In this document: in pieces, positions 239 through 42,277 of the stretch
Position numbering within the stretch: the stretch's first letter is position 1
How the letters are laid out: each line of letters starts with the position of its first letter
From: an uncultured Clostridia bacterium
GTDB taxonomy: Bacteria > Bacillota > Clostridia > Oscillospirales > JAAYOS01
Direction of reading: 5' to 3'
Length of the DNA: 64,000 bases
Assembly: GCA_947630675.1 (NCBI GenBank)
Contig: CANRIN010000001.1
Location: forward strand, 69,361-133,360
The notes under the pieces: generated by a model
What the model saw: only the letters and a program-made list of their open reading frames with translations
Databases searched by the model: none
Told to the model about the DNA's origin: nothing
Position numbers and translations under genes: made by a program

Positions 239-269
239 GGAGCCCCGCCGAAAGGCGGGGCTCCGTTTT
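239..269 (+). terminator. Rho-independent terminator
   Basis: GGAGCCCCGCC-GAAA-GGCGGGGCTCC followed by GTTTT. Confidence 0.7.
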
Positions 270-470
270 CGCGGAAAATCGCGGGGGCAGGTCGTACAAT
301 GTCGGGACGTCGGCGCGAAGCGCCGAGGTCTGATGCGCCCAGTAGAAAGTTGCGGCTCGCAATAAGTCGAAGGGCGCATTCACGCCGCGGCAAAAAACGA
401 ATTTGAATTTTTTCACGCCTACGGCGCGAAACTCTGCGAGGCTATCGGCGCAAAGCGCCGTCCGCGCCGA
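266..470. repeat. Short copy of the dispersed hairpin-module repeat family (locus A)
   Basis: 266-290 is near-identical to 6282-6306. 392-443 is homologous to 6494-6546 (..GGCGCGAAACTCTGCGAGGCT). It contains the CGGCGCGAAGCGCCG and GGCGCAAAGCGCC hairpins. Confidence 0.75.
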
Positions 471-1877: not shown

Positions 1878-3638
1878 ATGCCGATAGACGCAATATTTCT
1901 CACAGCCCTCACCCGCGAAGTCGCGGGGCGGGTCGTGGGTCAGAAGATAGACAAGATATTTCAGCCGGAGCACGACGAAATAGTCCTCGCGACGCGCGGC
2001 GCGGCGGGGTCGAGCCGTTTGCTCCTCTCCGCAGTGCCCGGCTCCGCGCGGATGGAGCTGCTTGCGGAGAACCGCGAGAACCCCGCAGTTCCGCCGATGT
2101 TCTGTATGCTGCTGCGGAAGATACTCGGAAGCGGCGTTATCCGCGAGGTGCGTCAGTACCCCGGCGAGCGGATAGTCGAGATAGGCGTGGATTCCATAGA
2201 CGAGTTCGGCGAGCCGAGGCGGAGACGCGTCCTGCTGGAGCTCGTCGGGCGTCAGCCAAACCTCGTCCTGCTCGACGAGGAGAGCCGCATAATCGACTGC
2301 ATCCGCCGCGTCGAGGGCGACATAGCCGCGGGAAAGCGGCAGATACTTCCGGGACTGTTCTACCGCCCGCCCGAGCCGCAGAAGAAGCGCGACCCGCTCG
2401 CGCTCGCGCCGGAGGAGACGGCGGAGATACTTGCCGGGTTTGACGACGGCGTGACGATAGAGCGCGCGCTGATGGCTTCGTTTGCCGGCGTGTCGCCGCT
2501 CGTCGCGCGGGAGGTAGCCGCGCGCTCCTCCGGGGACGTCGATGGACGCCTCGACAGCGTGACGCGCCTCCGCACGGAGGAGACGCTTTGCGACATAGCG
2601 GCGCGCGCAAACGACGGAGCGCTCGAGCCGTGGATACTCACGAAGAACGGCGAGCCGTGCGACTTCAGCTACCTCGAGCTCACGCAGTACGCCGGCGGCG
2701 GATACGAGTGCGAGAAGTGCGCGGGCTTTTCCGCGCTGCTCGAGCAGTTCTACGCGAAGCGGGAGCACTCCGAGCGTATGCGTCTCCGCGCGCGGGAGAT
2801 GACCAAGACCGTCTCGACCGCCCTGGAGCGCGCGACGCGCAAGCTCGAGACACGCCGCGCGGAGATGGCGGAGGCAAAGGAGCGCGAACGCCTCCGCGAG
2901 ATCGGTGACCTGCTGATGGCAAACCTCCATCTGATAGGGCGCGGCGCGAAGAGCGTCACCGTCGAGGACTTCTACGACGAGTCGAACGCCCCGACCGAGA
3001 TAGCGCTCGACCCGCGCCTCACTCCGCAGCAGAACGCGGCAAAATACTATCGCGACTATGCGCGCCGCAAGAACGCGGAGAAGATGCTGAAGGGACTCAT
3101 CGAGGAGGGCGAGACCGAACAGACCTACCTCGGGAGCGTCCTCGGTGAGCTGAGGAACGCGGAGAGCGACCGCGAGCTCGCGGGGATACGGGAGGAGCTT
3201 GTCAGCACCGGCTACCTCCGTCCGCAGGGAGGACAGAAGCAGCGCAAGAGCGCGGCGCTCCCGCCGAGAGAGTTCGTGTCGAGCGGCGGGTTCCGCATTC
3301 AGGTGGGCAGAAACAACCTCCAGAACGACCACCTGACCCTCCGTGAGGCGCACAAGAACGACGTCTGGCTGCACGTCCGCGGAGCGCATGGGGCGCACGT
3401 CCTGATACGCTGCGACGGCGAGGAGCCGGACGACGCCACCTACACCGAGGCGGGCGAGATAGCCGCCTTTTACTCCGACTCGCGGGAGGGGACGAACGTC
3501 GCCGTCGACTACACCCGCGCGAGATTTGTGAAGAAACCGTCCGGGGCGAAGCCGGGCATGGTGGTGTACGACCCGTACTACACCATGTACGTCACGCCAG
3601 ACGAGAAAAAGGTACGGTCGCTGAGAGGAAAGGTGTGA
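1878..3638 (+). CDS. rqcH: Rqc2 homolog RqcH (NFACT family, fibronectin-binding protein A-like), ribosome-associated quality control
   Basis: 586 aa. N-terminal MPIDAIFLTAL..E....G.KIDKI.QPE.DE, a central coiled coil, and a C-terminal NFACT-R region (GF.I.VGRNN.QND.LT...A...D.WLH). Confidence 0.85.
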   Translation: MPIDAIFLTALTREVAGRVVGQKIDKIFQPEHDEIVLATRGAAGSSRLLLSAVPGSARMELLAENRENPAVPPMFCMLLRKILGSGVIREVRQYPGERIVEIGVDSIDEFGEPRRRRVLLELVGRQPNLVLLDEESRIIDCIRRVEGDIAAGKRQILPGLFYRPPEPQKKRDPLALAPEETAEILAGFDDGVTIERALMASFAGVSPLVAREVAARSSGDVDGRLDSVTRLRTEETLCDIAARANDGALEPWILTKNGEPCDFSYLELTQYAGGGYECEKCAGFSALLEQFYAKREHSERMRLRAREMTKTVSTALERATRKLETRRAEMAEAKERERLREIGDLLMANLHLIGRGAKSVTVEDFYDESNAPTEIALDPRLTPQQNAAKYYRDYARRKNAEKMLKGLIEEGETEQTYLGSVLGELRNAESDRELAGIREELVSTGYLRPQGGQKQRKSAALPPREFVSSGGFRIQVGRNNLQNDHLTLREAHKNDVWLHVRGAHGAHVLIRCDGEEPDDATYTEAGEIAAFYSDSREGTNVAVDYTRARFVKKPSGAKPGMVVYDPYYTMYVTPDEKKVRSLRGKV

Positions 3639-3642
3639 GCGT

Positions 3643-4641
3643 ATGGCAAAGACCGCCGGAACGAAGCTGAGAGTCCTGCTGGTGTATGAGATACTGAGGG
3701 AGAAGTCCTCCCCGGAGCATCCTCTCACCGTGCCGGAGATACAGGAGGAGCTTATGCGTCGCGGCGTCGAGTGCGAGAGAAAGAGCGTCTACTCGGACAT
3801 CGGCGCGCTCTGCGACTTCGGCTATGAGATAGAGCAGAAGCGCGGCCGCGACGGGGGATACTTCCTGCGCGGGCGGGACTTCGAGCTCGGCGAGCTGAAG
3901 CTGCTCGTGGACGCGGTGCAGTCCTCAAAGTTCATCACGCCGGAGCGGTCGCGGGAGCTCATATCGAAGCTCGTCGCTCTCGCGGGTGAGCGGGACGCGG
4001 GCAGCCTCTCACGGCAGGTGTTCATCACCAACCGCGTCAAGACCGCAAACGAGAGCGTGCTCCGGTCGGTGGACGCTATACACACCGCCATCGCCGAGAA
4101 CCGGCAGATAGAATTCGACTACACCGACTGGGATGTGAATTTCGGGCCGGGCGAGACCTTCGTACGCCGCAGGCGCGGCGAGCGGCGGAGGGTCAGCCCC
4201 ATCGCGCTCGCGTGGGACGACGAGAATTACTACCTCGTCTCCTTCGACTCTGTGCGCGGCGAGCGGCGCAACTTCCGCGTGGACAAGATGGAGGAGATTG
4301 TTATCTCGGGCGAACAGCGCGACCGCCGCTGGGACTACGGCACGTTCGACCCCGGCGCGTACTCGCGCGAGATGTTCGGGATGTTCCACGGCGACAGGAG
4401 ACAGGTGAAGATCCGCTTCGAGCGGCGCTTTGCCGGCGTCGCGGTGGACAGGCTCGGACGGGACGTGCACGTCTCGCCGGACGGGGAGGATCACTTCCTT
4501 CTCACCTGCGAGGTCGAGGTCAGCCCGCAGTTCTTCGCGTGGCTCATAGGTCTCGAGGGAGGGGCGGAGCTGCTCGAGCCGCAGGACGCGAGGGAAGCGC
4601 TGAAAAATCTCGTCGCGGCGGCATCGGAGCTGTACGGATAG
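3643..4641 (+). CDS. WYL-domain transcriptional regulator (wHTH-WYL-WCX architecture)
   Basis: 332 aa. N-terminal wHTH (LRVLLVYEILREKSSPEHPLTVPEI), then a WYL core (RRRVSPIALAWDDENYYLVSFDSVRGERRNFRVDKM). It starts 4 nt after the rqcH stop. Confidence 0.8.
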   Translation: MAKTAGTKLRVLLVYEILREKSSPEHPLTVPEIQEELMRRGVECERKSVYSDIGALCDFGYEIEQKRGRDGGYFLRGRDFELGELKLLVDAVQSSKFITPERSRELISKLVALAGERDAGSLSRQVFITNRVKTANESVLRSVDAIHTAIAENRQIEFDYTDWDVNFGPGETFVRRRRGERRRVSPIALAWDDENYYLVSFDSVRGERRNFRVDKMEEIVISGEQRDRRWDYGTFDPGAYSREMFGMFHGDRRQVKIRFERRFAGVAVDRLGRDVHVSPDGEDHFLLTCEVEVSPQFFAWLIGLEGGAELLEPQDAREALKNLVAAASELYG

Positions 4642-4913: not shown

Positions 4914-6278
4914 ATGGCAAAATTCAAGATCCCGGAGGAGGGCCTTCGGGACGCGAGACAGCTCGGCATACCGCGTATGCTGATACTCGGCCTTCAGCAC
5001 ATGTTCGCAATGTTCGGCGCGACGATACTCGTTCCGATACTCGTGCAGGGCTACGGCCTGCCGATGAGCATTCAGGTCACGCTGTTCTTCGCGGGCATCG
5101 GAACGCTGCTCTTCCATGTACTTACTAAGCTGAAGGTCCCGGCGTTCCTCGGTTCGAGCTTCGCATTCCTCGGCGGCTTTGAGGCGGTCGCAAATCTCAA
5201 GGCGTATGCAAACTGCACGCCGGACGAGCGCCTCGCTTACGCGCTCGGCGGCGTCGTGATAGCGGGCGCGATATACGTTGTCGTCGCGCTCGTGATAAGG
5301 CTCGTCGGCGTCAAGCGCGTCATGCGCTTCCTGCCGCCGGTCGTCACCGGCCCGATAATCATTTCGATAGGCCTCATCCTTGCGTCTAGCGCGATAAACA
5401 ACGCTTCGAGCTGTTGGTGGCTCGCGGGTGTGTCGCTGCTCGTCATCATCGTCGCGAACATCTGGGGCCGCGGCATGATAAAGATAGTGCCGATACTTCT
5501 CGGCGTTGTCGTACCCTATGTCATAGCGCTTATACTTACGCTCACGAAAGTCGTCGGCCCCGGCAACGGAGCTTATATCGACTTCTCCGCCGTAAAGGAC
5601 GCAAACATCGTCGGATTCCAGCCGTTCAGCTTCCCGAAGTTTGACGTCTCGGCGATACTCGTCATGGCGCCGATAGCCATCGCCTCCATGATGGAGCACG
5701 TCGGCGACATCTCCGCGATATCCGCCACCGTCGGCGAGAACTTCATCGAGGACCCGGGCCTCTCGCGCACCCTCCTCGGAGACGGTCTTGCAACGAGCAT
5801 TGCCGCAGTCTTCGGCGGCCCGGCGAACACCACCTACGGCGAGAACACCGGCGTCCTCGCGCTCACCAAGGTCTACGACCCGTGGGTCATCCGCATCGCC
5901 GCCTGCTTTGCGATAGTGCTCTCGTTCAGCCCGCTCGTAGCAGACGTGATAGGCTCGATACCGTCCGCGATAATCGGCGGCGTCAGCTTCATCCTCTACG
6001 GCATGATTTCCGCCATCGGCGTCCGCAATGTCGTCGAGAACCGCGTCGACCTGTCGAAGAGCCGCAACGTCATCATCGCGGCGGTCATACTCGTGTCGGC
6101 GCTCGGCTTTAACTCGGTGGGCGGCCTCACCTTCAACATCGGCGGCACCGCCATCACCCTGACCGGCCTCGCGCTCGCGGCCATACTCGGCATACTGCTC
6201 AACGCAATACTCCCGGGCAAGGACTACGAGTTCAACGCCAACACCGGCGTAGGGTTCGAGGGCGGCCCGAAAAAATAA
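4914..6278 (+). CDS. uraA: NCS2-family uracil/xanthine permease
   Basis: 454 aa, multi-TM, with the LGLQHMFAMFGATILVPILV signature typical of uracil permeases. The SD GGGAGGAAAGG lies upstream. Confidence 0.85.
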   Translation: MAKFKIPEEGLRDARQLGIPRMLILGLQHMFAMFGATILVPILVQGYGLPMSIQVTLFFAGIGTLLFHVLTKLKVPAFLGSSFAFLGGFEAVANLKAYANCTPDERLAYALGGVVIAGAIYVVVALVIRLVGVKRVMRFLPPVVTGPIIISIGLILASSAINNASSCWWLAGVSLLVIIVANIWGRGMIKIVPILLGVVVPYVIALILTLTKVVGPGNGAYIDFSAVKDANIVGFQPFSFPKFDVSAILVMAPIAIASMMEHVGDISAISATVGENFIEDPGLSRTLLGDGLATSIAAVFGGPANTTYGENTGVLALTKVYDPWVIRIAACFAIVLSFSPLVADVIGSIPSAIIGGVSFILYGMISAIGVRNVVENRVDLSKSRNVIIAAVILVSALGFNSVGGLTFNIGGTAITLTGLALAAILGILLNAILPGKDYEFNANTGVGFEGGPKK

Positions 6279-6281
6279 ACT

Positions 6282-6953
6282 TTTTCGCGGGAAATCGCGG
6301 GGGCAGACTTTGTCTGCCCCCTTACCAATTTCCCGCGAGAAGTTCACTTGAAATTGCGCCTGCGCAATTTCAAGTGAAGCTGTCGGATAGGGCAAAGCCC
6401 TACCGACAGCAAGCGCTCCGCTCTGCTCCTCGCGCCTGCGGCGCTTCGAAGCGCGCTACGCGAGAGGAGTTTTTCCGACGTACACGCCGTCGGAAAAAAC
6501 GGATTTGACTCTATTTCGCGCCGGAGGCGCGAAACTCTGCGAGGCTTGGTTGCGCCGCTCCGCCCTACAATGAGCTCAAGGTCGGGCAATATTCGCGAAG
6601 CGAATATTGCGGGCGAAAGCAGTAGAGTGCCGGATGCAGAACAGGTTTGCGCTTTCGCTGTTCGCAGCGGTTAAAGTTGCTTGCCATAGGCAAGCAACTT
6701 TGCGGAGCAAAATCACATTCAAGGTTTGGCTTTGCCCGCGAAGCGGGTAAAGCTCACGAGGGCTGATATGTTACGATGAGTAATATGTCGGCGCCCTCGT
6801 GTTTCCGAGCGAGCATTTCAATTAAATAAAAGGGTTCCCACGCGGTCGCCGACCGCGTGGGAATTGCGAAAGGGTGCGCAGGGCAATTCATTGCCCGAGC
6901 ACATTTCGCGCCGAAACTATAGCAAAAGGGAGGCCGTCGGCCTCCCTTTTGCT
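6282..6953. repeat. Mosaic of stacked hairpin modules (locus B), the most complete copy of the dispersed intergenic repeat family
   Basis: About 12 consecutive hairpins are present. Examples are CACTTGAAATTGCGC/GCGCAATTTCAAGTG, CAATATTCGCGAAGCGAATATTG, GTTGCTTGCCATAGGCAAGCAAC, GGCTTTGCCCGCGAAGCGGGTAAAGC, CACGAGGGC..GCCCTCGTG and CCCACGCGGTCGCCGACCGCGTGGG. The ~270-bp core at 6565-6830 recurs at 42825-43095 and 50640-51010. Confidence 0.85.
6299..6321 (+). terminator. Terminator-like hairpin after the permease gene
   Basis: GGGGGCAGA-CTTTG-TCTGCCCCC. There is no strong T-run. Confidence 0.45.
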
Positions 6954-7051
6954 ATTCGTTCGGTTTGTCTATTTTGAATATCTTCCTGAGTATCGCTCCG
7001 AAGAACTTCGGCGAACGCCAGACTACCACTTTCATATTTCAGCCCGCCTCT

Positions 7052-13330: not shown

Positions 13331-13398
13331 GCGGCCTTGTCCAAAAGTTGACCTTTCGACTGTATAATCAGGTCATCGTTTGGAAAGGAGCGATTTTC

Positions 13399-15525
13399 AT
13401 GAAAACAAGGATGGCGTTATTTCTGGCGGTCTGCCTGCTGCTTTCCCTTCTGTCCGGCTGCGGGACAAACGGTGATCCCAAAGAGAGCAGCGTGTACGCG
13501 GGGATGGAGACGGAGAGCAACCCCTTCAACTACGAGGGACCGTCTGAGATTCTGGGTTCGATCAGTCATAAAGGGAATTGGACGGAGCGCGAGGAAGGCA
13601 AGCCCTTGGAGTACAGCGGCGGGGAGATCGCAGTCCCATACTGCGCCAAGGGTGACGGAACCGGTAAAGATGTGGGCTTTCTGCTGTTCGTTGAGGGCAT
13701 ACCCCAGCCTTACAAACTGAACGGCGAAGGCGAGTACGGCTATATGCATCCGTTCTCGCTCAAGGAGGACAATGTCGAGGAGCAGTTCACATTTAACTTT
13801 GTCCCTGTAACCGGGAAAGCCGGAGACACCTTGACCTTTACCGTGGCAAATATCTTCAACGCCGGATTTGAACCTGATATGGTGAGCTCGTCCAACTTCG
13901 GGCTTTACGGCAGCGCACTCAGCACCATAAACTTTATACATTTCTCCGCCGATCCCAAAACCGGCCATCAAGAGGCGCCGCCTTTGAAAGCGTTGTCCGA
14001 CGTCACGGTCACAAACGAGCTGATGACTGCCCGGTTCGTGGAAGAAAAACTCGGCCCTCAAGTCGGTATGACTACGGGAGACGGCAAAACCAGAGAGGAC
14101 AAGCTTGACGAATCCGTCTTTATGTTTGACACCTACGACGGGGAGCCGGAGCTCAACGACCTTGATATCACCGGAAAAGACTCTCTCCATGTGGCCGTGG
14201 ACCTCTGCGGGATACCGGGGCTCACATATGAGGTCACCTTCTTTGCGGATCACGTGCCGCTGTCGGACGGAGAGCAAAGCGTGTGGGAGGTAACGCTGGA
14301 AAAAGGAAAGGTCGCGAGAGTGGAGGCCGACCTCAGCCCGGACGGTCTGGAGGGTGTGACTACCTTCTATGCCGCCGCCTGTATCAGGGACAGCGCGGAC
14401 GTCAATGCCCGAAGCTGGGGACTGATCAAAACAGACTCCCTGCCCATATGGTCTCAGGACAAGCTTGACGCGGGCGGGCCTCAAGACAGCGGTAATAAGA
14501 CCGAAAGCGGTACACCCGCCGACAGCGTGGCGGAGATCCCCGAGGTGATGGACGAAACCGTCCGTTCCCTGTGGTACGGCACAGGGGACACAGTGCTTGT
14601 CAGAAAGCCGGACACGCTGTGCCTTGTTGACATAATGACCGGTGAGGTTTTGGCCGAGGGGCCGGTTCCCGACCTCAAGAACGTCACATACCATCCGGTC
14701 GACGAAGGCTTCTGCGCCGTGGGGGAGACGGCAGAAAGCGGTGAAGCCACTGTGTTGATGCAAGCCGATTCCGGCAAAACTGACACGATATGCGTTTTTC
14801 TCGACAGCACCCTTTCGGAGACAGACAGATTTTCCCTTTCCGCTCTCGCCGGTGAGGATAAACATATCATGTGTACCGCAATTTCCGCGGACGGATGCTA
14901 TGCGGCCTTCTCCGTTATGAATGACGGGATATACCTCTATTCCCGCGACACCGATGAGGTCACACTTCTGCGCGATCTGACCGGCGGTCACAGGGCTGAG
15001 AACAGCGGTATCACGATGGCGACGGGTCTATGGTTCAGCGGGGACTCATCAAAGCTGATTTTTTCCGACAACGCTCATTTCGGCAGTGTGGGACTTGACG
15101 GCAGGAATTTTGTCTGCGCAGGTTTTGACGGCTTTGACCCTCAAGGGGCGGTAGGGTACGCCGGAGGGAAGATGTTTTTCAATGAAAACTTCTTTACCGC
15201 CTCCGGAGCGATGGCCGTCGCGGATGTTGACGGTTTGAGCAGCGTTATCTACAAGCACTCGGCGAGGGAGGGCAGCGGAGACCTCTATGCCTCCCGCGAC
15301 GGCGGATATTTTGCCACTGCCGCGTTTGACGGCGGCCTGACTGTGCGTATCTACGGGACGGAGGATGACAGCCTGCGCCTGGAGTACACCATCACGGACG
15401 AAAATGAGGATGTTTTCAATGCCGCGCCCGGGATCCTCATTTTGGACGATTTGAAGCTGTGCCTTGTGAAGCTGGGCGGATTCTCGGATGTGCCGGCGCG
15501 GGTCGAACTTCTATCCTTCGAGTGA
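13399..15525 (+). CDS. Large secreted lipoprotein of unknown function (two Ig-like-looking repeats plus a C-terminal TolB/WD40-like propeller region)
   Basis: Signal peptide with a lipobox (MKTRMALFLAVCLLLSLLSGC). SD GGAAAGGAG. 708 aa. The C-terminus has repeated S.DG.Y.AF....G.Y.Y type strands. Confidence 0.65.
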   Translation: MKTRMALFLAVCLLLSLLSGCGTNGDPKESSVYAGMETESNPFNYEGPSEILGSISHKGNWTEREEGKPLEYSGGEIAVPYCAKGDGTGKDVGFLLFVEGIPQPYKLNGEGEYGYMHPFSLKEDNVEEQFTFNFVPVTGKAGDTLTFTVANIFNAGFEPDMVSSSNFGLYGSALSTINFIHFSADPKTGHQEAPPLKALSDVTVTNELMTARFVEEKLGPQVGMTTGDGKTREDKLDESVFMFDTYDGEPELNDLDITGKDSLHVAVDLCGIPGLTYEVTFFADHVPLSDGEQSVWEVTLEKGKVARVEADLSPDGLEGVTTFYAAACIRDSADVNARSWGLIKTDSLPIWSQDKLDAGGPQDSGNKTESGTPADSVAEIPEVMDETVRSLWYGTGDTVLVRKPDTLCLVDIMTGEVLAEGPVPDLKNVTYHPVDEGFCAVGETAESGEATVLMQADSGKTDTICVFLDSTLSETDRFSLSALAGEDKHIMCTAISADGCYAAFSVMNDGIYLYSRDTDEVTLLRDLTGGHRAENSGITMATGLWFSGDSSKLIFSDNAHFGSVGLDGRNFVCAGFDGFDPQGAVGYAGGKMFFNENFFTASGAMAVADVDGLSSVIYKHSAREGSGDLYASRDGGYFATAAFDGGLTVRIYGTEDDSLRLEYTITDENEDVFNAAPGILILDDLKLCLVKLGGFSDVPARVELLSFE

Positions 15526-16404: not shown

Positions 16405-17606
16405 GGCTTGTGGGTTTTGAGTTGAAAAAGCTCTTTGTGCGGCTGCCTGTCCTCGTCGCTCTGGCGCTGTTCACGGTTTTCGACCTTGTGAAGATCCACG
16501 CCACCGTGGACAGCATCTCCTATCTGCATGAGGACAGCACTTGGAACCGGGTTTACCGGGAGCAGTATGAAAACTACAGCGGTGAGATAACGCTTGACAA
16601 AATCAACGCATTGTTGGACATTTATAAACCCTTGGAGACAGCGATCAACGACCTCACCGCCACGACGCGCACCGATGTGGAGGGAACGCTGACCGGAAAC
16701 TTATACAGCGACAAGAATCTCTTGGAGCGATACTTCGTTGACCCCATGGAGCGATTCTTTACATACAAAAGCAATGCTTCGGCAACCGTAAACGCTGCCC
16801 ATGAGAACGTGCAATTCTATGAGAGCCGGGGAAATACCTATGAGGCTAGAAAAAACGCGGCAATAGCAAAGCTCTATCAGGGCCGCCGTGTCACGGAGTT
16901 TTACTACACGGAGGGATACAAGCTGTATCTGAACTATGACTTCTCCGCAATACTCATACTTTTATTGGTGCTCTACGCCCTCTCCCAGACCTTCACCCGC
17001 GATAAGGAGTGCCGGATGACCGAACTGCTGCTGACCTCTCCCGGCGGGGGAACTACTACCATTTTTGCAAAGATCGCGGCGGCTTCGGTTTACATTCTCG
17101 CCGTCTCCCTGTGGTTCTCTGCCGTGGACTTCGCGGGCTTTGAGATGTTCTCCGATCTTACGGATGCGGGCGGCCTCCCGGTCTATGCGGTGGAGACCTT
17201 CCGGGAGGCGTCAGTTGATTTGACACTCTTTGCCTATAGCGCTGTCAGTGCCCTGGGCAGGGCACTGGGCTTCTGGGCGCTCGGTATGGTGTTTCTTGCC
17301 CTCGGCGAGGTCGGCCGCCACGCGCTCCTGCCTTTTGCCATGGGAGCGGGTGCGTTCCTCGCCTGTACGCTGGCAGGCGTCAGATGGGGCTATTCGTCCC
17401 ACACGCTCATAAAGGTGCTGAACCCCTATTCCATGTTGGTGAACCGCCTTCTCTTCGGAAAAACGGAGTTTGTGGACATTTTTGGCGTACCGGTGCTGAC
17501 CTGGCAGGCGGGACTTATATATACGGCAGCTCTCGGAGTCCTGGCCGCAGCTCTGGCCGTGGTATTCGGCGGTAAAAGCAAACTGCGAAAGGGGGCCCTG
17601 CTGTGA
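16401..17606 (+). CDS. ABC-2 family transporter permease
   Basis: The GTG start overlaps the ATPase stop. There is an N-terminal TM, a ~170-aa extracellular loop, and a cluster of 5 C-terminal TM helices. Confidence 0.65.
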   Translation: MRLVGFELKKLFVRLPVLVALALFTVFDLVKIHATVDSISYLHEDSTWNRVYREQYENYSGEITLDKINALLDIYKPLETAINDLTATTRTDVEGTLTGNLYSDKNLLERYFVDPMERFFTYKSNASATVNAAHENVQFYESRGNTYEARKNAAIAKLYQGRRVTEFYYTEGYKLYLNYDFSAILILLLVLYALSQTFTRDKECRMTELLLTSPGGGTTTIFAKIAAASVYILAVSLWFSAVDFAGFEMFSDLTDAGGLPVYAVETFREASVDLTLFAYSAVSALGRALGFWALGMVFLALGEVGRHALLPFAMGAGAFLACTLAGVRWGYSSHTLIKVLNPYSMLVNRLLFGKTEFVDIFGVPVLTWQAGLIYTAALGVLAAALAVVFGGKSKLRKGALL

Positions 17607-19390
17607 TGCTGTGGAAATTTGAGCTGCGAAAGATGTTCAGTGTGGACCGGGGCATTTTCATCGTAGTGATATTCCTGATTGCCGAGCTTGCCCTGTTGAT
17701 CCTCGGAGATGCTCCGGTCAACGCCGACGCGGCGCTCTACCGGGAGCAGTATCTCGCCGAACTGGAAAAGGCGGAGGGACCGTGGACACCGGGAAAGGCC
17801 GCGCTTCTGGAGAGTGAGGCGCGAGATACGGAGCGGAGCAGCGAAGGATTCAACGTGCTGTATAAGCAGTATCTCTATGTAAACGAGGGCAGAGAGAACC
17901 GGTATTTTCTGGACGCCAACGGCTGGGCGGGCCTGCTGGCGGACAGGGCCCTCGATATCCCTTTGGTCGCGGCTATCATTCTGCTGTGTGTTCCCATCTA
18001 CTGCGGCGAGGCAGTCGGCGGAATGGAGCCGCTTGCGCTGACATCGCGGGACGGAAAGCGTCTCTTTCTGCACCAAAAGCTCATTTTGGCGCTATCCGTC
18101 ACAGCCGCTCTGTCGCTGTCGGCTGACTTCGTGCGCCTTACCTTCTTCGCATTGAAATACGGTCTGCCCCACGGCGGTTATCCCATGCAGAGCGTCGAAA
18201 GCCTCGGTTCTGCCGCAAAAGCCATGTCCCTCCGGAGTGCAGAAGCCCTGACAGTGGGCCTCCGGCTTCTCGGCTCGATGGAGCTTGCCATGATAACGCT
18301 TTTCTTCTCGGCACTGTGCGGCCAGTTCGCCCTGTCCGCGTTTCTTGGAACCGCCGTTGCCGTTTTACCTTGGATCGGGCTTGATAAGTCCATTCAATAT
18401 GCCCTTCCACTGCCTTCATCTCTTATAACGGTAGTTGGATTTATCCAGGGAAGTGAGTATGAGGAAGATGCCATAACGGGCCAGAGCGTGGCTGTGTTCC
18501 GGGAGGCAGACTGGAAGCAGATCGGTCTGATCGCCGCAGGCGCAGTGCTGGTGGGCGTAGTCTGCGTGCTTTTTATTCACAAACGATACCAAACGGCCCT
18601 TTCGGGCGGGCGCAGGGTCAAGAGGAAATCTGTCGCGCTGTGCCTGCTTCTGTCCCTCTGTCTGACCCTGGGCGGGTGTACGGAGATGTCAAGCGCCGAC
18701 ACCGGCGCCGCCATATACAACAGCCGAGATCACCAAATCTATGAATACAACGGCCTTACCGTCCGTGCCGAAAACAGCGAACTCATTGTGACCGGCAGTT
18801 CCGGCGATTCGATTTCTCTCATTCGCAATGCCCTTGACCCCATAAGCGGCACAGCGTACTCCACCAATTTCTACGCCAGCGGGAGATATGTGTATTTCTG
18901 GAAGACGGATTCGGAGAGTTATGGTCAGAAATTGGCATCCGACACCGGCAAGACATACGTCACCACCCTCGTCCGCGTAAATCTGGACACCTTCGATTCA
19001 GAGGTAGTGTTTGAAGATGTGATCCAGCACACGGTTTTGGGGGTTGACAGACCTGTCAATGATCCTCTCGGCTTTCTTGGCAGCAACGGGGACTTCTTTA
19101 CGGACAGCAATTACATCTACTACCTCCGTTCGGGCATCCGGCGGGTGGAGCTGCGGACAGGGAAGGTATCTGTTCTTGATATTCCCACAAATCACAATGT
19201 CGCCTTTGACGGCAGAATGATTTATTACCTAGCCTCCGACGGTATCCTGACCTGCTATGACACGGAAACCGGGGAGACAGCTGGCATATACGGGGAGGCT
19301 GTCAATGATTTCAGGTTAACCACGGATGGACTAAGCGTCACTACGCTTGCGGGCGAGAAAACTGTTATCAATGCAGACAGCCGGCCGTGA
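17603..19390 (+). CDS. ABC-2-like permease fused to a C-terminal extracytoplasmic beta-propeller-like (DUF5050-like) domain
   Basis: About 340 aa of TM helices are followed by LLLSLCLTLGGC and then ~240 aa with repeated YVYF/YIYY/MIYY strand motifs. Translationally coupled (GTGATG overlaps the upstream stop). Confidence 0.6.
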   Translation: MMLWKFELRKMFSVDRGIFIVVIFLIAELALLILGDAPVNADAALYREQYLAELEKAEGPWTPGKAALLESEARDTERSSEGFNVLYKQYLYVNEGRENRYFLDANGWAGLLADRALDIPLVAAIILLCVPIYCGEAVGGMEPLALTSRDGKRLFLHQKLILALSVTAALSLSADFVRLTFFALKYGLPHGGYPMQSVESLGSAAKAMSLRSAEALTVGLRLLGSMELAMITLFFSALCGQFALSAFLGTAVAVLPWIGLDKSIQYALPLPSSLITVVGFIQGSEYEEDAITGQSVAVFREADWKQIGLIAAGAVLVGVVCVLFIHKRYQTALSGGRRVKRKSVALCLLLSLCLTLGGCTEMSSADTGAAIYNSRDHQIYEYNGLTVRAENSELIVTGSSGDSISLIRNALDPISGTAYSTNFYASGRYVYFWKTDSESYGQKLASDTGKTYVTTLVRVNLDTFDSEVVFEDVIQHTVLGVDRPVNDPLGFLGSNGDFFTDSNYIYYLRSGIRRVELRTGKVSVLDIPTNHNVAFDGRMIYYLASDGILTCYDTETGETAGIYGEAVNDFRLTTDGLSVTTLAGEKTVINADSRP

Positions 19391-19819: not shown

Positions 19820-20030
19820 GCGCCGCGACAGCGGCGCTCCGCTCTTATATTAAAATGCTCGGGGCGAACACGAGGGCGCCAACATATTCCGCATCGGAAC
19901 ACATGCAGCCCTCGTAAGCTTTGCCGCTTTGCGGCAAAGCCAAACACTGATGTCATTGCATGCGCGAAGTTAGCGGCGCAGCCGCTAACTTCAACCGCTG
20001 CGAACAGGCGCGGAGCGATCTCGCGGTCTG
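19820..20030. repeat. Partial, inverted copy of the hairpin-module repeat family (locus E)
   Basis: AAATGCTCGGGGCGAACACGAGGGCGCC...GCCCTCGTAAGCTTTGCCGCTTTGCGGCAAAGCC is the reverse complement of the second half of the 6700-6830 core. GAAGTTAGCGGCGCAGCCGCTAACTTC matches 50863-50890. Confidence 0.8.
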
Positions 20031-27935: not shown

Positions 27936-28121
27936 GTTATATACTTTATTGCAGAGAGGAAAAACAAAAGTCCCATTTCTAGATAAGTATTGATAAAGCA
28001 AACCACGCATAAATAATATGCCTTTTGATACGAAGGGATTGTTTCATAATTAAGGAACCGCTTCAAATTTGCACTTTCAATCAGGAACGCTAACATTATT
28101 CGATCTTGTTTGTTGTGGCAG

Positions 28122-28424: not shown

Positions 28425-28586
28425 TTCAAGTTTGTCAGCAAATATCATTGCTTCATAATATCCTTAAGGAGCAAAATTATAACTATCAGTCATTTTCCTA
28501 TCAGCATTTTTGCGGGCAGGGATTTCTTTAAACATAATTGTGCAACCTGATAGTATCAATACTTATCTAGAAATGGGACAAACAAA

Positions 28587-29911: not shown

Positions 29912-29973
29912 ATCAGTTTCCCTCCGATTTGTTTTTTAGTTCATTATAATGCGCTTTCTGCTCCGCGTCAATG

Positions 29974-30002
29974 TTGAACCGCGTTCGGAAATGTTGTATA
30001 AT
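29974..30002 (+). promoter_or_regulatory. Sigma-A promoter candidate for the sigma/anti-sigma operon
   Basis: TTGAAC, 17 bp, TATAAT. Confidence 0.5.
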
Positions 30003-30062
30003 ACCCATATAGACTCTATGGAATACGGCAAAACCCCGACAGATCCCGCGCGGAGGTGTTCT

Positions 30063-30539
30063 GTGAACGCGGAAGAGAAGGCGTTTGTGGAAAAACTGTA
30101 TATCGAGACGGCGCAGCTGCTCCTCGGCTACGCGCGGCGGCTCCTCGGCGACAGAGACCTTGCCGAGGAGGCGGTGCAGGACGCCTTTCGGGTGGCGTGT
30201 TCCCGCGCGGATGTGCTGATGGCGAGCGCGAACCCGCAGGGCTGGATGATGAACACCGTCAAGAACGTCTCGAGGAACATCGTGCGGAGCCGCGCGCGGT
30301 CTGCAACCTTCCTTGCGAAGATGCAGCTCGAGGAAAAGGCATATACCGAGCCGCACGACATACACGACCCGGACCTGCTCTATGAAAACCTGAAGAACAA
30401 CGAGGACTACCTGCTCCTGAGACGCCTCTCCGAGCCGGGGGCGACGATAGCGTCGGTAGCGCGGGAGCTCGGCATAGGAACGGAGGCCTGTTCAAAGCGG
30501 ATACAGCGGGCGCGGAAGCGGCTCCAAAAATATTTTTAG
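30063..30539 (+). CDS. Sigma-70 family (ECF-like) RNA polymerase sigma factor
   Basis: Region 2 (LLLGYARRLLGDRDLAEEAVQDAFRVA) and region 4 HTH (ATIASVARELGIGTEACSKRIQRARKRL). The GTG start follows GGAGGTG. An upstream ATG at 30018 is possible but lies too close to the promoter. Confidence 0.75.
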   Translation: MNAEEKAFVEKLYIETAQLLLGYARRLLGDRDLAEEAVQDAFRVACSRADVLMASANPQGWMMNTVKNVSRNIVRSRARSATFLAKMQLEEKAYTEPHDIHDPDLLYENLKNNEDYLLLRRLSEPGATIASVARELGIGTEACSKRIQRARKRLQKYF

Positions 30540-30600
30540 AAATTTTCAAAAAAACTGTCCCGAAATCGGGACGTGCGGACATACACAGTCGGAAGGAGGA

Positions 30601-31494: not shown

Positions 31495-32631
31495 GTGCGG
31501 GAAGAAGACCTGCGCCGCATACCAAACGAGGTGGATGGTTTGTCCGACTTTGAAGAGCTGCTGAAGGATCAGTGGCGGAGATATCCCATATTCGCGCCGC
31601 AGGACGCATGCAAGGCTATCGTGCAGGCGGTGCTCGGGCCGGAGCATTTCGTGAGCGACAGGGCGTCGGCGGCAAAACGGATAAAGGCGGAGCTTGAGAC
31701 GGTCGAGCAGGAGAACATTGAGCTGACGGAACCGCTCGGTGAGCGGTTCTGCCGGGTGCACCTCCGCGCGCTCGACGCTGCCGGTATCTCGCCGGACACG
31801 CTTGCGGGGCTCTTCACGCTCTCGAGCAGGACGGTCTGCGGAAGCACCGCCGAGCTGGAGGCGGCGGTCGCGGCGCTCATGGCGCTCGCGGGCGCGGGAG
31901 AAGCGCCGTTCGGCGCGGCGGAGGCGCGCGGGTACGTCGAAAAATGGCGCGAGGCGGGGTATCCCGCGATAAGCCACTCGGAGAGCTTCCACGCGGCGTA
32001 CCGCCCCGCGTACCGCGTGGCGGCGCGTGAGCTTATGCGGCTGATGCCGCTGTTCCGCGCGACAGACACGCTTCTCGCTGAGGGAAGGCGGCGCGTCGTC
32101 GTCGCGATAGACGGGATGTGCGGCTCGGGCAAGAGCACCCTCGCGGGCGTGTTGAAGGAGGTCTGCGGCTGCGCGGTGTTCCACATGGATGACTACTATC
32201 TCCGCCCGGAGCAGCGTACCCCGGAGAGGTATGCCGAACCGGGAGGGAACGTCGACCGGGAGCGCTTCCGTGAGGAGGTGCTCACCCCGCTCTCACGCGG
32301 CGATGAGGAGATAGTCTACCGCCCGTTCGACTGTGCGGAGATGCGCGTCGCGCCCGAGCGGCGCGAGCGTGTCGGAAGGCTCGCCGTGGTCGAGGGGTCG
32401 TACAGCCTGCACCCCGAGCTCGCGGGAATGTACGATATCCGCGTGATGCTCACGATAGACCCCGTAAAGCAGGAAAAGCGCATTCTCGAACGCGAGGGCG
32501 AGGATAAACTCGAGCGCTTCAGGAACGAGTGGATACCGCTCGAAAATCTTTACTTTGAAAAGACGCGAGTGAGAGAGCGGTGCGACCTCACTTTTGACGC
32601 GCCGAGGATAAAGTGGAGGGAGACGCAATGA
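31495..32631 (+). CDS. Two-domain protein: unknown N-terminal domain plus a uridine-kinase-like P-loop NTPase
   Basis: Walker A in VVVAIDGMCGSGKSTLAGVL, then FHMDDYYLRPEQRT...VVEGSY. The GTG start follows GGAGAG. Confidence 0.55.
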   Translation: MREEDLRRIPNEVDGLSDFEELLKDQWRRYPIFAPQDACKAIVQAVLGPEHFVSDRASAAKRIKAELETVEQENIELTEPLGERFCRVHLRALDAAGISPDTLAGLFTLSSRTVCGSTAELEAAVAALMALAGAGEAPFGAAEARGYVEKWREAGYPAISHSESFHAAYRPAYRVAARELMRLMPLFRATDTLLAEGRRRVVVAIDGMCGSGKSTLAGVLKEVCGCAVFHMDDYYLRPEQRTPERYAEPGGNVDRERFREEVLTPLSRGDEEIVYRPFDCAEMRVAPERRERVGRLAVVEGSYSLHPELAGMYDIRVMLTIDPVKQEKRILEREGEDKLERFRNEWIPLENLYFEKTRVRERCDLTFDAPRIKWRETQ

Positions 32632-33093: not shown

Positions 33094-33109
33094 TCAATCG
33101 TCTACACCA

Positions 33110-33142
33110 GCCTCGCAGAGTTTCGCGCCGTTAGGCGCGAAA
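33110..33142. repeat. Single inverted module of the hairpin repeat family (locus F)
   Basis: GCCTCGCAGAGTTTCGCGCCGTTAGGCGCGAAA is the reverse complement of the module at 6512-6546 and 420-443. Confidence 0.75.
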
Positions 33143-33737: not shown

Positions 33738-33840
33738 ATTGCACCTCCGTTATGTATGTGGAAAGCACCTTGTCGTTTCCCAAAGGGACATTCGCCGCGT
33801 TTCATTGAAAATATTATACCATGAGCGCAAGCGCGAATGG

Positions 33841-33930
33841 CATAATATGCTATGTTTTGCGGTTCCGCCCGAAAGGCGGGAGCAAAACGGCATTGAATCA
33901 AATATAATAATCGCTCTATGATTATTATAA
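33841..33930. repeat. Single unit of the 110-bp hairpin repeat (locus G), the same family as the array at 54038-54310
   Basis: TATGTTTTGCGGTTCCGCCCGAAAGGCGGGAGCAAAACGGCATTGAATCAAATATAATA....TATTATA matches the array unit almost base for base. Confidence 0.8.
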
Positions 33931-33962
33931 CATAACGCGGAACAAATTGCAAACATTTGTTT
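33924..33962 (-). promoter_or_regulatory. Candidate distal lexA promoter with an overlapping degenerate SOS-box-like palindrome
   Basis: On the minus strand: TTGCAA (33947-33952), 17 bp, TATAAT (33924-29; this hexamer belongs to the repeat unit). AAACATTTGTTT at 33951-33962 and GAACAAAT at 33940-47 flank the -35. A proximal extended -10 (TGGTATAAT, minus strand, 33813-21) is an alternative. Confidence 0.35.
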
Positions 33963-34006: not shown

Positions 34007-34987
34007 TTACTTGTCAAACTTCAGGCTGAGGCGCAGGGTGTACTGTTCGCCGGAGCCGTCCGGGTTTTGTGTCAAGAACAGCGTCAGACGGTACTCCCCA
34101 CCTTCTTCAAATGTAAGACGCTGCCTAAACATGAACAAATTATCGTATCCGCTCTGGCGCGGCTCGGATGAAGTGTCGTAGAAGCGGCGGGGGTCGTCCT
34201 CCGGGAGCAGAATCATTGACGAGCCGACATCCGTATCGGTGATATCCGTGTATTCGCCGCTGTCCGACTTCTTCTCAATGGTTCCGTGGGCTAGGTCGAG
34301 ATAAAGCGTGGCGCCGTCCATGTTTGGCCGTATGGCGACATAAACTCCGCCCGGCTCGATATAATCTACCGACACTACATCAAACTTGCTGCCGGTGGCT
34401 TCGGGAACGGTGACGGTGTGAGAAATCGAATAGAGAGTATCGCCTGTCGAATAGTCACCTGTGCTTTCGTGCATCTTGTATGTCAGCTTGTATGTTCCCG
34501 ATTCGTGTATCGGGAACGGCAGCAGTATGCGGCTGCCTCCGCTTTGCAGTACCACATAATCGGGCATGCCGCCTACAGTTGCGAGCTTATAAGGACGAAT
34601 ACTCTGCAAATTGACCCATTCGCCGTCTTCCAACCGCTCCATTGTGACGGGTTTGTCGAACCGTACACGTGACGTCTGCATGCCGTCCTCAAATACTTTT
34701 TCCGTCACGGCGGCGTCATGCTCACCGGAAAAGCATACTCCGAGCTGCGGCGCTCCGTTCCAGGTGGTGAAATAGTAGGAAGTCGCCTCGACAAAATCGG
34801 TGTCCCCCGAACAATCGGAGATGGGTACTCTTTCGGCAGTTGAGATCGTTTCTTCGGCAGTCGAGAGCGTCTTTTCGGTATTGCCGAAGTCGCCTTGGGT
34901 GCTCTCGGTGCCCTGCCCCGAGCAGGCGGCAAGCATTGCGAGCGCCAGACAGAGCGCGAGTATTTTGAGTATCCGTTTCATGTTCAT
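34007..34987 (-). CDS. Secreted lipoprotein of unknown function
   Basis: MNMKRILKILALCLALAMLAAC (lipobox). 326 aa. SD GGAGG upstream. Confidence 0.6.
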   Translation of the reverse strand: MNMKRILKILALCLALAMLAACSGQGTESTQGDFGNTEKTLSTAEETISTAERVPISDCSGDTDFVEATSYYFTTWNGAPQLGVCFSGEHDAAVTEKVFEDGMQTSRVRFDKPVTMERLEDGEWVNLQSIRPYKLATVGGMPDYVVLQSGGSRILLPFPIHESGTYKLTYKMHESTGDYSTGDTLYSISHTVTVPEATGSKFDVVSVDYIEPGGVYVAIRPNMDGATLYLDLAHGTIEKKSDSGEYTDITDTDVGSSMILLPEDDPRRFYDTSSEPRQSGYDNLFMFRQRLTFEEGGEYRLTLFLTQNPDGSGEQYTLRLSLKFDK

Positions 34988-35052: not shown

Positions 35053-35245
35053 CCGTTCATAGCGTATATGTCCGCACACCGCGTTTTGGGGACAGCTTTT
35101 TTAAAATTTTATCAAAAATTTTTCATTCTGTCACCTCCGTATCATAATGAAGTACCTGAGCGGGGTCGGGCGGAGGGACATTTGCCCCGCACATCCACCC
35201 GTTCATAGCGTATATGTCCGCACATCGCGTTTTGAGGACAGCTTT
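35053..35245. repeat. Two copies of a ~47-bp conserved block (35053-35100 and 35199-35245) within a ~146-bp duplicated upstream module
   Basis: CCGTTCATAGCGTATATGTCCGCACA(C/T)CGCGTTTTG(G/A)GGACAGCTTT. Each copy is followed on the minus strand by TACGGAGGT(T/G) and an ATG. Confidence 0.8.
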
Positions 35246-35258: not shown

Positions 35259-35287
35259 TTGACTTGGGTGCTCCGCTGTGCTACAAT
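35259..35287 (+). promoter_or_regulatory. Sigma-A promoter candidate
   Basis: TTGACT, 17 bp, TACAAT. Confidence 0.5.
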
Positions 35288-35313
35288 GTGAGAAGAAATT
35301 TCGGGAGGGGTCG

Positions 35314-41853: not shown

Positions 41854-41956
41854 TTGTGACGGATTGAACATTTCAATCGGAAAGGGACAGCGGCACTTTG
41901 CGCCGAGCTCCCGACACCGGTAAGCCGTATCATTTCTCTATATTCATTACTATGTA

Positions 41957-42010: not shown

Positions 42011-42277
42011 ATGGCTCAGGTCAATCTTAATGTCCGCATGGATGAGGATGTCAAGCGCCGGTTCGACGAGTTTTGTGCCGAGGTCGGTATGAACGCCTCG
42101 GTCGCCATCAACCTTTTTGCTCGCACCGTCGTCCGCGAACAGCGCATCCCGTTCGAGATCACCGCTGACCCGTTCTACTCCTCCGCAAATATGGCTGCCC
42201 TTCGCCGCTCTATCGCCGAGCTGGACGCCGGGCGCGGTACTCCTCACGAGCTTGCGGAGGGCGGCGGCGATGACTAA
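42011..42277 (+). CDS. Type II antitoxin, RelB/DinJ family (RHH)
   Basis: MAQVNLNVRMDEDVKRRFDEFCAEVGMNASVAINLFARTVVREQRIPFEI. SD AAAGGAGG. Confidence 0.8.
   Translation: MAQVNLNVRMDEDVKRRFDEFCAEVGMNASVAINLFARTVVREQRIPFEITADPFYSSANMAALRRSIAELDAGRGTPHELAEGGGDD

Follow-up and report, generated by a model that had tools for sequence, protein, structure and literature searches.

A dispersed mosaic family of three-hairpin repeats between the genes of a clade of uncultured Clostridia

What kind of element fills an intergenic spacer of 670 nt almost entirely with stem-loops? The question is raised by positions 6282–6953 of a 64,000-nt stretch of contig CANRIN010000001.1 (positions 69,361 to 133,360, assembly GCA_947630675.1) from an uncultured Clostridia bacterium, hereafter the window, where the spacer lies between a xanthine/uracil permease gene (4914–6278, plus strand; Pfam) and a convergent small open reading frame (ORF). 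An earlier note on this DNA had described the spacer as one of at least eight loci of a modular hairpin family similar to the repetitive extragenic palindromes (REPs) and bacterial interspersed mosaic elements (BIMEs) of enterobacteria. We find that the family works like a BIME or a neisserial intergenic mosaic element (NIME), but is most probably neither a REP in the strict sense nor a repeat of the SRM/NTS type. Our preferred reading, to which we assign a probability of roughly 55%, is that of a mosaic DNA repeat built from hairpins, which neither codes for protein nor moves autonomously and which is specific to this lineage. This reading is based on the dispersal of units with defined ends to dozens of unlinked intergenic sites, on the gain, loss and inversion of units at shared hairpins and the damage that copies do to genes, on the near-neutral decay of copies while the family keeps its pairing and a few unpaired motifs, and on strand-specific, DNA-type loops in copies that also occur in promoter regions and antisense.

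Repeat finding and sensitive self-BLAST of the window recovered nine repeat intervals, each with at least two independent paralogous matches (related genomes included) and every one of them intergenic: 292–465; 6283–6914; 19842–20017 (inverted); 33109–33142 (inverted); 33812–33941; 42441–42577; 42666–43277; 50627–51048; and 54037–54425. They add up to 2706 nt, or 4.2% of the window, where about 5% had been estimated. All previously listed loci were thereby confirmed, with 41868–41890 recognized by eye only, as was a second sub-family at 33812–33941 and 54037–54425. Three full copies of a ~270-nt core (6551–6826, 42817–43089 and 50644–51008) show pairwise identities of 84–86% with E values from 1e-83 to 1e-27 (self-BLAST), a similarity far above chance that confirms the repeat observation; the module order described for this core can be read directly in the sequences of the arrays.

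What is the repeated entity? We aligned 18 full-length copies with their flanks, separately aligned 28 copies of the 5′ domain, and built a covariance model (R1) on the 5′ domain alone. The basic unit is non-coding, about 125 nt long (range 110–135 nt) and has three hairpins: a variable junction hairpin, a conserved unpaired linker (…TCAATGTC(G/C)GG), a 10-bp hairpin with a C-GAA-G loop, and a third hairpin whose 8–9-bp stem encloses a loop of ~30 nt with GATGARGAAT, followed by GTTC. The junction hairpin occurs, for example, as ACGGCGC-TTT-GCGCCGT, TTTTCCGCC-GAA-GGCGG or AGCGCC-GCA-GGCGCT, and the consensus after it reads (TT)CCGCnCTAYAAYGnGCTCAATGTCGGG, then the hairpin CAATATTCGC-GAA-GCGAATATTG. 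In the 5′ domain the third hairpin is GCGA(AAA/GGG)GC, ~30 nt, GC(TTT/CCC)TCGC, and leads into GGTTCGCAGCGGTT. The 3′ domain opens with a hairpin GAAGTTnnnnGC…, continues with …TCAATGTCCGG and the hairpin GCTTTGCCCGC-GAA-GCGGGYAAAGC, and closes with a hairpin of CACGAGGGC, ~30 nt and GCCCTCGTG, then TTYGCCCC-GAGCATTTCAAT-nnAAGGGnT.

R1 also matches the 3′ domain of every core (48–67 bits), an extra segment at 50756–50843 (59 bits) and positions 255–381 (22 bits, E 2e-4), the last although all its stems differ. Since a model of the 5′ domain matches the 3′ domains, the 270-nt core must be one ancestral three-hairpin unit of ~125 nt present twice in tandem. There are at least three types of unit, with wholly different stems and with linker and loop motifs kept. 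Arrays end in terminal hairpins of two forms, CCCCAAACGGCGC…GCGCCGTTTGGGG or CCCACGCGGTCG.CGACCGCGTGGG; because a GAGCATTTNAAT tail directly precedes 46 of 50 complete terminal hairpins, the terminal hairpin belongs to the unit. A reduced unit of 118 nt (B unit) retains the first hairpin, along with a short one (GGCGAATTCATTCGCC) and the tail with its terminal hairpin.

Units lie head-to-tail or head-to-head with common junction hairpins (head-to-head pairs were seen at loci L076, L011 and L042 of related genomes), and it is this tandem or inverted placement of whole units that gives the appearance of shuffled modules. The shuffling and inversion described earlier for 6837–6900 and 42446–42520 are real in that 6830–6866 and 42441–42477 are 95% complementary, but what moves is not an independent hairpin: whole units of ~125 nt or ~118 nt occur in either orientation. 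Thus 6837–6910 is a terminal hairpin followed by a 3′ fragment of a B unit, and the minus strand of 42441–42577 is a whole B unit. Along the window, the parts of the family are as follows.

255–381, plus strand: type III three-hairpin unit, matched by R1 over the full model (21.8 bits, E 2.4e-4); usual layout (ACAATGTCGGG linker, GAA-loop hairpin, hairpin with a ~31-nt loop starting AGTAGA) with all stem sequences different; relatives in L076, L011 and L042.
381–470, plus strand: accessory modules e and f (…GCGCGAAACTCTGCGAGGCT), followed by CGGCGC-AAA-GCGCCG as a small junction hairpin and by CCGCGCC, the truncated start of a unit; 381–443 is 83% identical to 6483–6546 and 94% identical to 33142–33109 (self-BLAST).
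6282–6546, plus strand: 'left composite' of accessory hairpins, from self-complementary matches, at 6282–6341 (long), 6343–6378, 6381–6412, ~6413–6470 (branched), 6472–6500 and 6514–6546 (module f); identical order in L071, inverted and split around a unit in L021, L032, L011 and L072.
6536–6663, plus strand: type I unit, the 5′ half of the core (R1 134 bits; covariation), in the order junction hairpin, CCGCCCTACAATG…AAGGTCGGG linker, hairpin CAATATTCGC-GAA-GCGAATATTG, hairpin GCGAAAGC…GCTTTCGC.
6679–6805, plus strand: type II unit, the 3′ half of the core (R1 55 bits, E 3e-13), in the order hairpin GTTGCTTGCC…GGCAAGCAAC, TCAAGGTTTGG linker, hairpin GCTTTGCCCGC-GAA-GCGGGTAAAGC, hairpin CACGAGGGC…GCCCTCGTG.
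6811–6861, plus strand: unit tail GAGCATTTCAAT (6811–6822) and terminal hairpin type 2, CCCACGCGGTCG-C-CGACCGCGTGGG (6837–6861).
6872–6910, plus strand: 3′ fragment of a reduced (B) unit, TGCGCAGG-GCAATTCATTGC-CCGAGCACATTTCG; compare 42490–42517 (minus) and 43160–43195.
19842–20017, minus strand: type II unit and tail (nhmmer model positions 108–279, E 6e-39; R1 52 bits), downstream of hisIE, with which the minus-strand his operon ends (Pfam).
33109–33142, minus strand: lone accessory module f, 94% identical to 411–443.
33812–33941, plus strand: single sub-family 2 unit (110 nt, three hairpins), 82% identical to 54063–54189; nhmmer.
41868–41890, plus strand: degenerate tail motif GAACATTTCAATCGGAAAGGG after a gene terminator, very short and read by eye only.
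42441–42577, minus strand: inverted B unit with terminal hairpin at 42446–42470; 78% identical to 43233–43111.
42665–43110, plus strand: tandem run of a type II-like unit (42665–42776), a type I unit (42803–42929) and a type II unit (42947–43069), with R1 scores of 38.6, 138.8 and 48.2 bits; each is followed by a GAGCATTT(C/A)(A/G)AT tail and then a CCCCAAACGGC junction hairpin, with a period of 292 nt.
43111–43234, plus strand: B unit with the complete terminal hairpin type 1, CCCCAAACGGCC-TCC-GGCCGTTTGGGG (43208–43234), followed by the tRNA-Leu terminator.
50627–51047, plus strand: three tandem units, type I (50628–50755), extra (50756–50843) and type II (50863–50990), with R1 scores of 130, 59 and 67 bits, ending in a tail (50997–51008) and terminal hairpin type 1 (51018–51047), the first 20 nt of which are repeated in the junction hairpin 50629–50653.
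54026–54355, plus strand: sub-family 2, three tandem 110-nt units (95% identity, period 110), each with three hairpins including GCATATCGC-GAA-GCGATATGC; low-copy, in the window and one ortholog.
54391–54417, plus strand: terminal-type hairpin CCCAAACGCTCC-AAA-GGAGCGTTTGGG at the array end, lacking the usual tail.

How far does the family reach beyond the window? Scanning the 17-mer AAAGCTYACGAGGGCTG over 185,579 species genomes (one per GTDB species) returned 76 stretches, with true matches only in three 'uncultured Clostridia bacterium' species known from rabbit ('Lapin') metagenome-assembled genomes (MAGs); the remaining stretches show no similarity beyond the pattern, and that captured copies do not vary in the 17-mer reflects how they were ascertained. 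A search with the core (nhmmer) gave 90 matches that form 50 arrays. Four of these arrays are in the window, and what was captured of the three MAGs holds 24, 16 and 6. R1 recognized ~80 units over the 244 kb of related loci but not a single one when run on 341 kb of unrelated loci. With at least 46 further arrays in three related MAG species, the repeats are far from confined to the window. Lapin-022 and Lapin-004 are syntenic with window positions 43–59 kb at 88–93% nucleotide identity, so that the window represents a fourth, closely related species. Its GC content (0.50–0.68), its SpoIVA, SipL and GerA genes, in agreement with a spore-forming Firmicute, and its nearest relatives bear out the earlier description of the host as a high-GC Firmicute. 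JGI metagenomes and IMG/VR yielded chance pattern matches only and no member of the family, and we rejected a phage or wider metagenome origin: nhmmer matched the pattern stretch alone in three of five such loci (10.6–13.7 bits) and nothing in the other two. The family is multi-copy, dispersed and restricted to one clade of four closely related species.

Do the hairpins matter as structures, and on which strand? Across the 18 full-length copies, standard pairs occupy 98% of cells, and 14 both-side pair changes were counted against 8.3 ± 1.3 in shuffles and 2–3 with partners slid (covariation score 0.157 against 0.080), which upholds the compensatory stem changes reported earlier. This covariation is carried by five local hairpins; the long-range helices given by RNAalifold (GUUCG/CGAGC, GCUC/GGGU) show no variation and hence have no covariation support. 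We measured strand asymmetry on 265 element hairpins, read on the unit sense strand. Internal mismatches are G:T in 34 cases and A:C in 7 (binomial p = 2.5e-5; copies are not independent), and loops are similarly skewed: C-GAA-G 44 against C-TTC-G 9, AAA 35 against TTT 7, GCA 16 against TGC 3, and GGA 15 against TCC 0. One strand folds. As RNA, the sense strand has the better folding energy (−156 against −133 kcal/mol for antisense); a comparison of DNA and RNA folding energies for one copy was uninformative, with z-scores alike on both strands under both parameter sets.

These observations suit an explanation in which the units are structured RNA elements, acting in cis as a 3′-untranslated or intercistronic exonuclease block or processing site, or as a tandem-module protein sponge or small RNA, with DNA dynamics secondary. 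We hold this to be unlikely. In its favour are the strong covariation, the sense-strand excess of G:U over A:C, the better fold of the sense strand, and the unpaired motifs kept across anciently duplicated unit types in which all stems have changed. The loops point elsewhere. Structured RNAs generally favour GNRA and UNCG tetraloops, and tetraloops are also usual in the remaining hairpins of this genome. Of the array hairpins, 67% have triloops and 32% C-GNA-G loops, against 23% and 4% of all hairpins elsewhere in these sequences with stems of 7 bp or more, and hairpin density is ~6-fold higher in arrays than in the rest of the sequences. d(GCGNAGC) and d(GNA) loops closed by C-G form extraordinarily stable DNA mini-hairpins (PMC13037366, PMC3201870). 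We take the DNA-type C-GNA-G loops as an argument, though no proof, that it is as single-stranded DNA that the units matter in their folded form.

The genomic setting of the arrays bears on the same RNA explanation. Among the 39 classifiable arrays, 23 lie between co-directional, 9 between convergent and 7 between divergent genes (background 152, 24 and 23), and the co-directional ones comprise 16 sense, 6 antisense and 1 mixed. The excess of sense over antisense favours an RNA, as do arrays placed between stop codons and true terminators (6282–6910 precedes the terminator at 6911–6963) and arrays beside highly expressed operons such as rpsF-ssb-rpsR. The neighbours are ordinary housekeeping genes, among them the his operon, ispDF, infC and rpsF-ssb-rpsR; infC is one of the genes with arrays on both sides, and so is the rpsF-ssb-rpsR operon in three species (L055 5736–7938; also L022 and L059). 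Against an RNA stand the 7 arrays between divergent genes, the 6 antisense cases among 23, the existence of head-to-head pairs, the many truncated copies and the confinement to four closely related species. At its gathering threshold, Rfam 15 finds only tRNA-Ala and tRNA-Leu in the window, and permissive scans of 6250–7000 and 42400–43280 gave chance-level matches far below gathering scores, so the family is not a known Rfam RNA.

σ70 promoter-like and terminator-like sites in the arrays are not above shuffles, on which ground we rejected an independent transcription unit or terminator, and terminal hairpins are followed by AAAC, ATAAG or AATTG and not by the T-runs that would complete an intrinsic terminator (GC hairpin plus U-tract). 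Some evidence points against the roles in termination and mRNA stability proposed in the earlier note: no signal above chance, arrays in divergent promoter regions, and about a quarter of co-directional arrays antisense. A small protein can be dismissed as well. The type I unit holds a 32-codon ORF starting at the ATG of AATGTCGGG, whose ATG is missing in 9 of 28 copies and which carries stops in 5, and variation by codon position (4.4, 2.8, 3.2) shows no third-position excess.

Beyond the end of the array at 6282–6910, on the minus strand at ~6953–7036, lies a 27-codon ORF (MKVVVWRSPKFFGAILRKIFKIDKPNE) that by eye is similar to SpoVM, a sporulation peptide; this ORF extends to the bidirectional terminator 6911–6963 and lies upstream of the SipL and SpoIVA genes on the other strand.

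Do arrays change? Comparison of orthologous loci shows that they differ by whole units. After the gene at 49956–50603 the core is present in all three genomes compared; the window has three units there, Lapin-004 a second partial core and Lapin-022 an added B unit, with junctions always in the CCCCAAACGGCGC-TTTT-GCGCCGTT hairpin. Between L071 and L036 the difference is one complete extra unit, CCGCCC… to …CGCCGCTT, which separates GCGCCGTT from GGGGG within a hairpin. At another locus the number of B units is 4, 1 and 0 across the three species, and the 54-kb array has 3 sub-family 2 units in the window, 1 in Lapin-022 and 0 in Lapin-004, where a palindrome remnant suggests deletion. Beside two tRNA genes, L022 carries two units and L059 the terminal hairpin alone.

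Arrays also coincide with damage and rearrangement. In the relB-yoeB pair at 42011–42485, the yoeB ORF (42270–42485) covers only positions 1–54 of 80 of the Pfam family YoeB_toxin: in place of its 3′ end stands the left edge of the 42.4-kb array, whose terminal hairpin 42446–42470 abuts the ORF, and the relB antitoxin gene is intact. Window positions 43162–47380 are inverted relative to Lapin-022 (L024 1–8000), with one junction in the array beside tRNA-Leu. Unit-number variation, the truncated yoeB and this breakpoint lend some support to the role in genome rearrangement that had been proposed. At the inversion junction, L024 has an extra low-GC GNAT acetyltransferase gene (3317–3718) with ~25-nt direct repeats (GGCAAGAACTTG.GAGCTA) on either side.

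Could such changes arise without dedicated machinery? Minisatellite-like slippage, template switching at palindromes and ectopic gene conversion might generate the arrays, with quasi-palindrome correction mimicking compensatory changes. The tandem periods of 110, 118 and 292 nt fit this, as does the fact that unit number varies always at shared junction hairpins. Slippage, however, cannot bring a unit to at least 24 unlinked loci per genome. The closest paralogs, L011 and L076 (94% identity), have sharply defined common ends, with homology that begins exactly at CCGC and stops after the terminal hairpin, and unrelated flanks; it looks as if a discrete unit had been copied after the species split. 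Nor would one expect a symmetric palindrome correction to leave loops and mismatches so skewed by strand or to conserve unpaired motifs across unit types, and we regard a purely passive origin as very unlikely.

How strongly are individual copies held in place? Paralogs within a genome are 75–94% identical and orthologs ~87%. Divergence between orthologous copies per nucleotide is 0.107 in stems and 0.138 in unpaired positions, compared with 0.154 at four-fold sites of flanking genes. Single stem substitutions between orthologs keep the pair in 38 cases and break it in 97, approximately the neutral expectation, and double changes keep it in 27 and break it in 10, often with a whole hairpin replaced. 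Divergence near the four-fold rate and mostly broken pairs indicate little constraint on individual copies, which speaks against a functional RNA; near-neutral divergence per copy and double 'compensatory' changes that often replace a whole hairpin also favour the passive explanation. One case differs: an antisense-oriented unit of ~200 nt (L034 6665–6863 and L043 6123–6320) is 100% identical between two species with flanks that differ by 5–10%, an invariance that favours the RNA explanation.

Is there a partner enzyme? Among the ~50 predicted proteins of the window, Pfam scans found no transposase, recombinase or nuclease family, and no transposase family recurs among 155 array-neighbour proteins (best 25 families per scan), where only housekeeping families with at most 4 members each were found. 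Searches by tblastn and blastp with IS200, IS608 and Escherichia coli REP-associated tyrosine transposase (RAYT) sequences of the HUH type, used in approximate form, gave nothing below E = 0.007, a weak negative; the tblastn search covered the window and 244 kb around 46 arrays (~300 kb and ~50 arrays in all). The absence of a RAYT-type transposase from the window, as previously stated, thus holds in the Pfam and tblastn searches alike. No GIY-YIG family appeared in the Pfam scans (best 25 families per scan), and a crude motif scan gave two implausible matches only.

These results weigh on the possibility that we are looking at a true REP/BIME system with a single-copy RAYT outside the window, or at SRM/NTS-type hairpins with an Ssn GIY-YIG nuclease. 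The repeats are indeed extragenic, palindromic and high in copy, clustered into mosaics in both orientations (50 arrays), with strand-specific hairpins and conserved flanking single-stranded motifs such as HUH enzymes require; moreover, Group 1 RAYTs occur in Clostridia (PMC5581495) and Ssn–repeat pairs are widespread (PMC11893778). Set against this, the repeated entity is a three-hairpin module of 110–135 nt and not an imperfect palindrome of 20–40 nt, and the sequence tags are missing: GTAG occurs 1.4 times per kb in the repeats and 1.5 in the window, CGTC 2.1 and 8.0 times, neither at hairpin feet. The SRM pattern HGTCWYN(0-2)YYVSBRHN(0-5)WNVSBRGN(0-2)RNCYNB (PMC11893778) has 0 matches on both strands of the window, with 0.6 expected, and neither a Y1 nor a GIY-YIG gene was detected in the window or in the 244 kb around 46 arrays. 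We consider this explanation quite unlikely, and of the original comparison the BIME-like architecture is a fair analogy, while the REP assignment is not supported, given the absent tags and the ~125-nt unit.

Other classes fit less well. The units do not fit miniature inverted-repeat transposable elements, since their ends (5′ CCGC…, 3′ hairpin) are not inverted repeats of each other and the flanking direct repeats are 17–25-nt hairpins common to the neighbouring unit instead of 2–10-bp duplications; no parent insertion sequence and no full-length element with an ORF between 5′ and 3′ parts was seen at the array loci. The terminal hairpin CCCCAAAC…GTTTGGGG only loosely resembles the R″/R′ core sites of integron attC sites (RYYYAAC … GTTRRRY), the internal junctions read GTTCCGC, the units are non-coding and dispersed at dozens of loci, and no integrase was found in Pfam scans of window and array-neighbour proteins (best 25 families per scan). 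Four further candidates were set aside because no feature supported them. The units are too small for a group II intron that targets terminators and give no match to domain V; a CsrA sponge disagrees with the loop size and with the minority share of GGA among the loops; units of a CRISPR-like array would differ as spacers do, whereas these are conserved; and the third hairpin is predicted to fold as one continuous helix, not as a K-turn or C/D-like motif.

Which known systems, then, come closest? REPs, BIMEs and REPINs share with our units the GC-rich extragenic hairpins, the high copy number, the mosaics with both orientations, vertical inheritance in a lineage, orthologous loci of varying content and possible effects at mRNA 3′ ends. 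They differ in the GTAG/CGTC tag and the 20–40-nt palindrome, in place of which we see no tag, a 110–135-nt three-hairpin unit and C-GNA-G triloops; they are mobilized by RAYTs, none of which was seen near the 50 arrays. Their hosts differ as well: a survey of GTAG/CGTC repeats covers Proteobacteria, Cyanobacteria, Chloroflexi and the PVC group, with no mention of Firmicutes, Clostridi- or Gram-positive (PMC3733652), whereas the host here is a Clostridia lineage.

NIMEs (RS units bounded by dRS3/NTS hairpins, with the single-stranded DNA nuclease Ssn; PMC11893778) resemble the arrays in their longer units, short bounding hairpins and conserved outer arms, (A)TTCCC…GGGAA(T) in Neisseria and TCCCA(A/C)…(G/T)TGGGA here. 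Their hairpins have oriented flanking sequence, as here, and are recognized as single-stranded DNA in Neisseria. In our arrays, by contrast, the SRM pattern is unmatched and a small GIY-YIG gene was not seen, and the hairpin forms the unit's own 3′ end in 46 of 50 cases, unlike NTS, an independent high-copy repeat. Palindrome-associated transposable elements (PATEs) derived from IS200/IS605 and the omega-RNA scaffolds of TnpB/IscB share strand-specific subterminal hairpins with adjoining conserved single-stranded motifs; PATEs also have defined ends (here 5′ CCGC and a 3′ hairpin), and their transposition mode makes tandem insertion beside an earlier copy possible. Here, in contrast, there is no Rfam match to IS605-orfB or HEARO-type RNAs and no tnpA or tnpB nearby.

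BOX elements of Streptococcus pneumoniae (boxA-boxB(n)-boxC) and ERIC/IRU elements are modular non-coding intergenic repeats of ~100–300 nt, the former in a Gram-positive host; like our units they are predicted to fold stably, vary in how many internal modules they contain and encode no transposase. They are not known to be related to the units in sequence, however, and BOX modules are not three-hairpin units with common junction hairpins; to our knowledge, the GNA-triloop signature has not been described for BOX.

How might such a mosaic DNA repeat work? In the most likely mechanism, one specific DNA strand would fold while single-stranded, for example at replication, and its hairpins and conserved unpaired motifs may then serve as substrate for copying the unit to new intergenic sites, with each new copy placed beside or inside another hairpin. 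The copying enzyme would be encoded elsewhere in the genome and act in trans. Arrays may grow, shrink and invert through recombination or slippage between shared junction hairpins, and copies would be near-neutral for the host, adding very stable stem-loops to mRNAs as a side effect if co-transcribed. The action on single-stranded DNA, the trans-acting enzyme and the hairpin-targeted insertion are what we infer from the features described above.

Several observations weigh against a mobile DNA repeat of this kind. No mobilizing enzyme was found in ~300 kb around ~50 arrays (approximate HUH queries; Pfam, best 25 families per scan). G:U pairs, covariation and conserved unpaired motifs are exactly what a functional RNA would show, and quasi-palindrome correction could yield seemingly compensatory changes without selection. 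Every case of presence or absence could also be a deletion; the orthologous loci compared include none in which a fresh, near-identical insertion stands against a clearly empty site, and with paralogs mostly 75–90% identical there is no sign of very recent bursts. The identical L034/L043 copy hints at strong constraint or a recent short exchange.

The window holds several other features as well. The gene at 35278 has upstream of it a 47-nt direct repeat (35053–35099 and 35199–35245, with 96% identity and a spacing of 146 nt), and 30526–30586, in the spacer after a sigma-factor-like gene (29949–30539), is an 80% inverted match to 35064–35123, unrelated to the hairpin family. A perfect 26-nt inverted repeat (27970–27995 and 28554–28579) surrounds ~560 nt on the margin of the segment at 28–30 kb, where the GC content of the window is lowest (0.50). 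On the minus strand, a very long ORF (58913–64000, more than 1695 aa) runs off the window and contains a 33-nt internal tandem repeat (59822–59887); its homologue in L026 is 82–87% identical, less conserved than its neighbours. The predicted proteins at 13348–15522, 17603–19387, 31495–32628 and 35278–36150 have no Pfam family at E ≤ 1e-5, and those at 34010–34987 and 49956–50600 none at E ≤ 1e-3.

What does the family mean for these bacteria? REP/BIME and NIME/NTS repeats have been characterized mainly in Proteobacteria, and two of them led to unexpected enzymes acting on single-stranded DNA, RAYT and Ssn. New here is a well-defined equivalent in spore-forming gut Clostridia, with a 125-nt three-hairpin module, loops of the stable DNA type and no recognizable partner enzyme. 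Tentatively, the units, with their conserved single-stranded motifs AATGTCGGG, GATGARGAAT and GAGCATTTCAAT, might be the substrate of an undescribed partnership between a single-stranded DNA hairpin repeat and an enzyme in Clostridia, a third kind beside REP–RAYT and SRM–Ssn, or else a new class of large tandem-module structured RNA; we think it improbable that either will prove true, and the interest would be greater if a new enzyme or RNA class resulted. The unit model allows 4% of the window, and similar shares of related genomes, to be annotated as repeat instead of unknown intergenic sequence, and the family offers a concrete way into the search for a partner enzyme and into the causes of the assembly breaks and local rearrangements seen in these MAGs.

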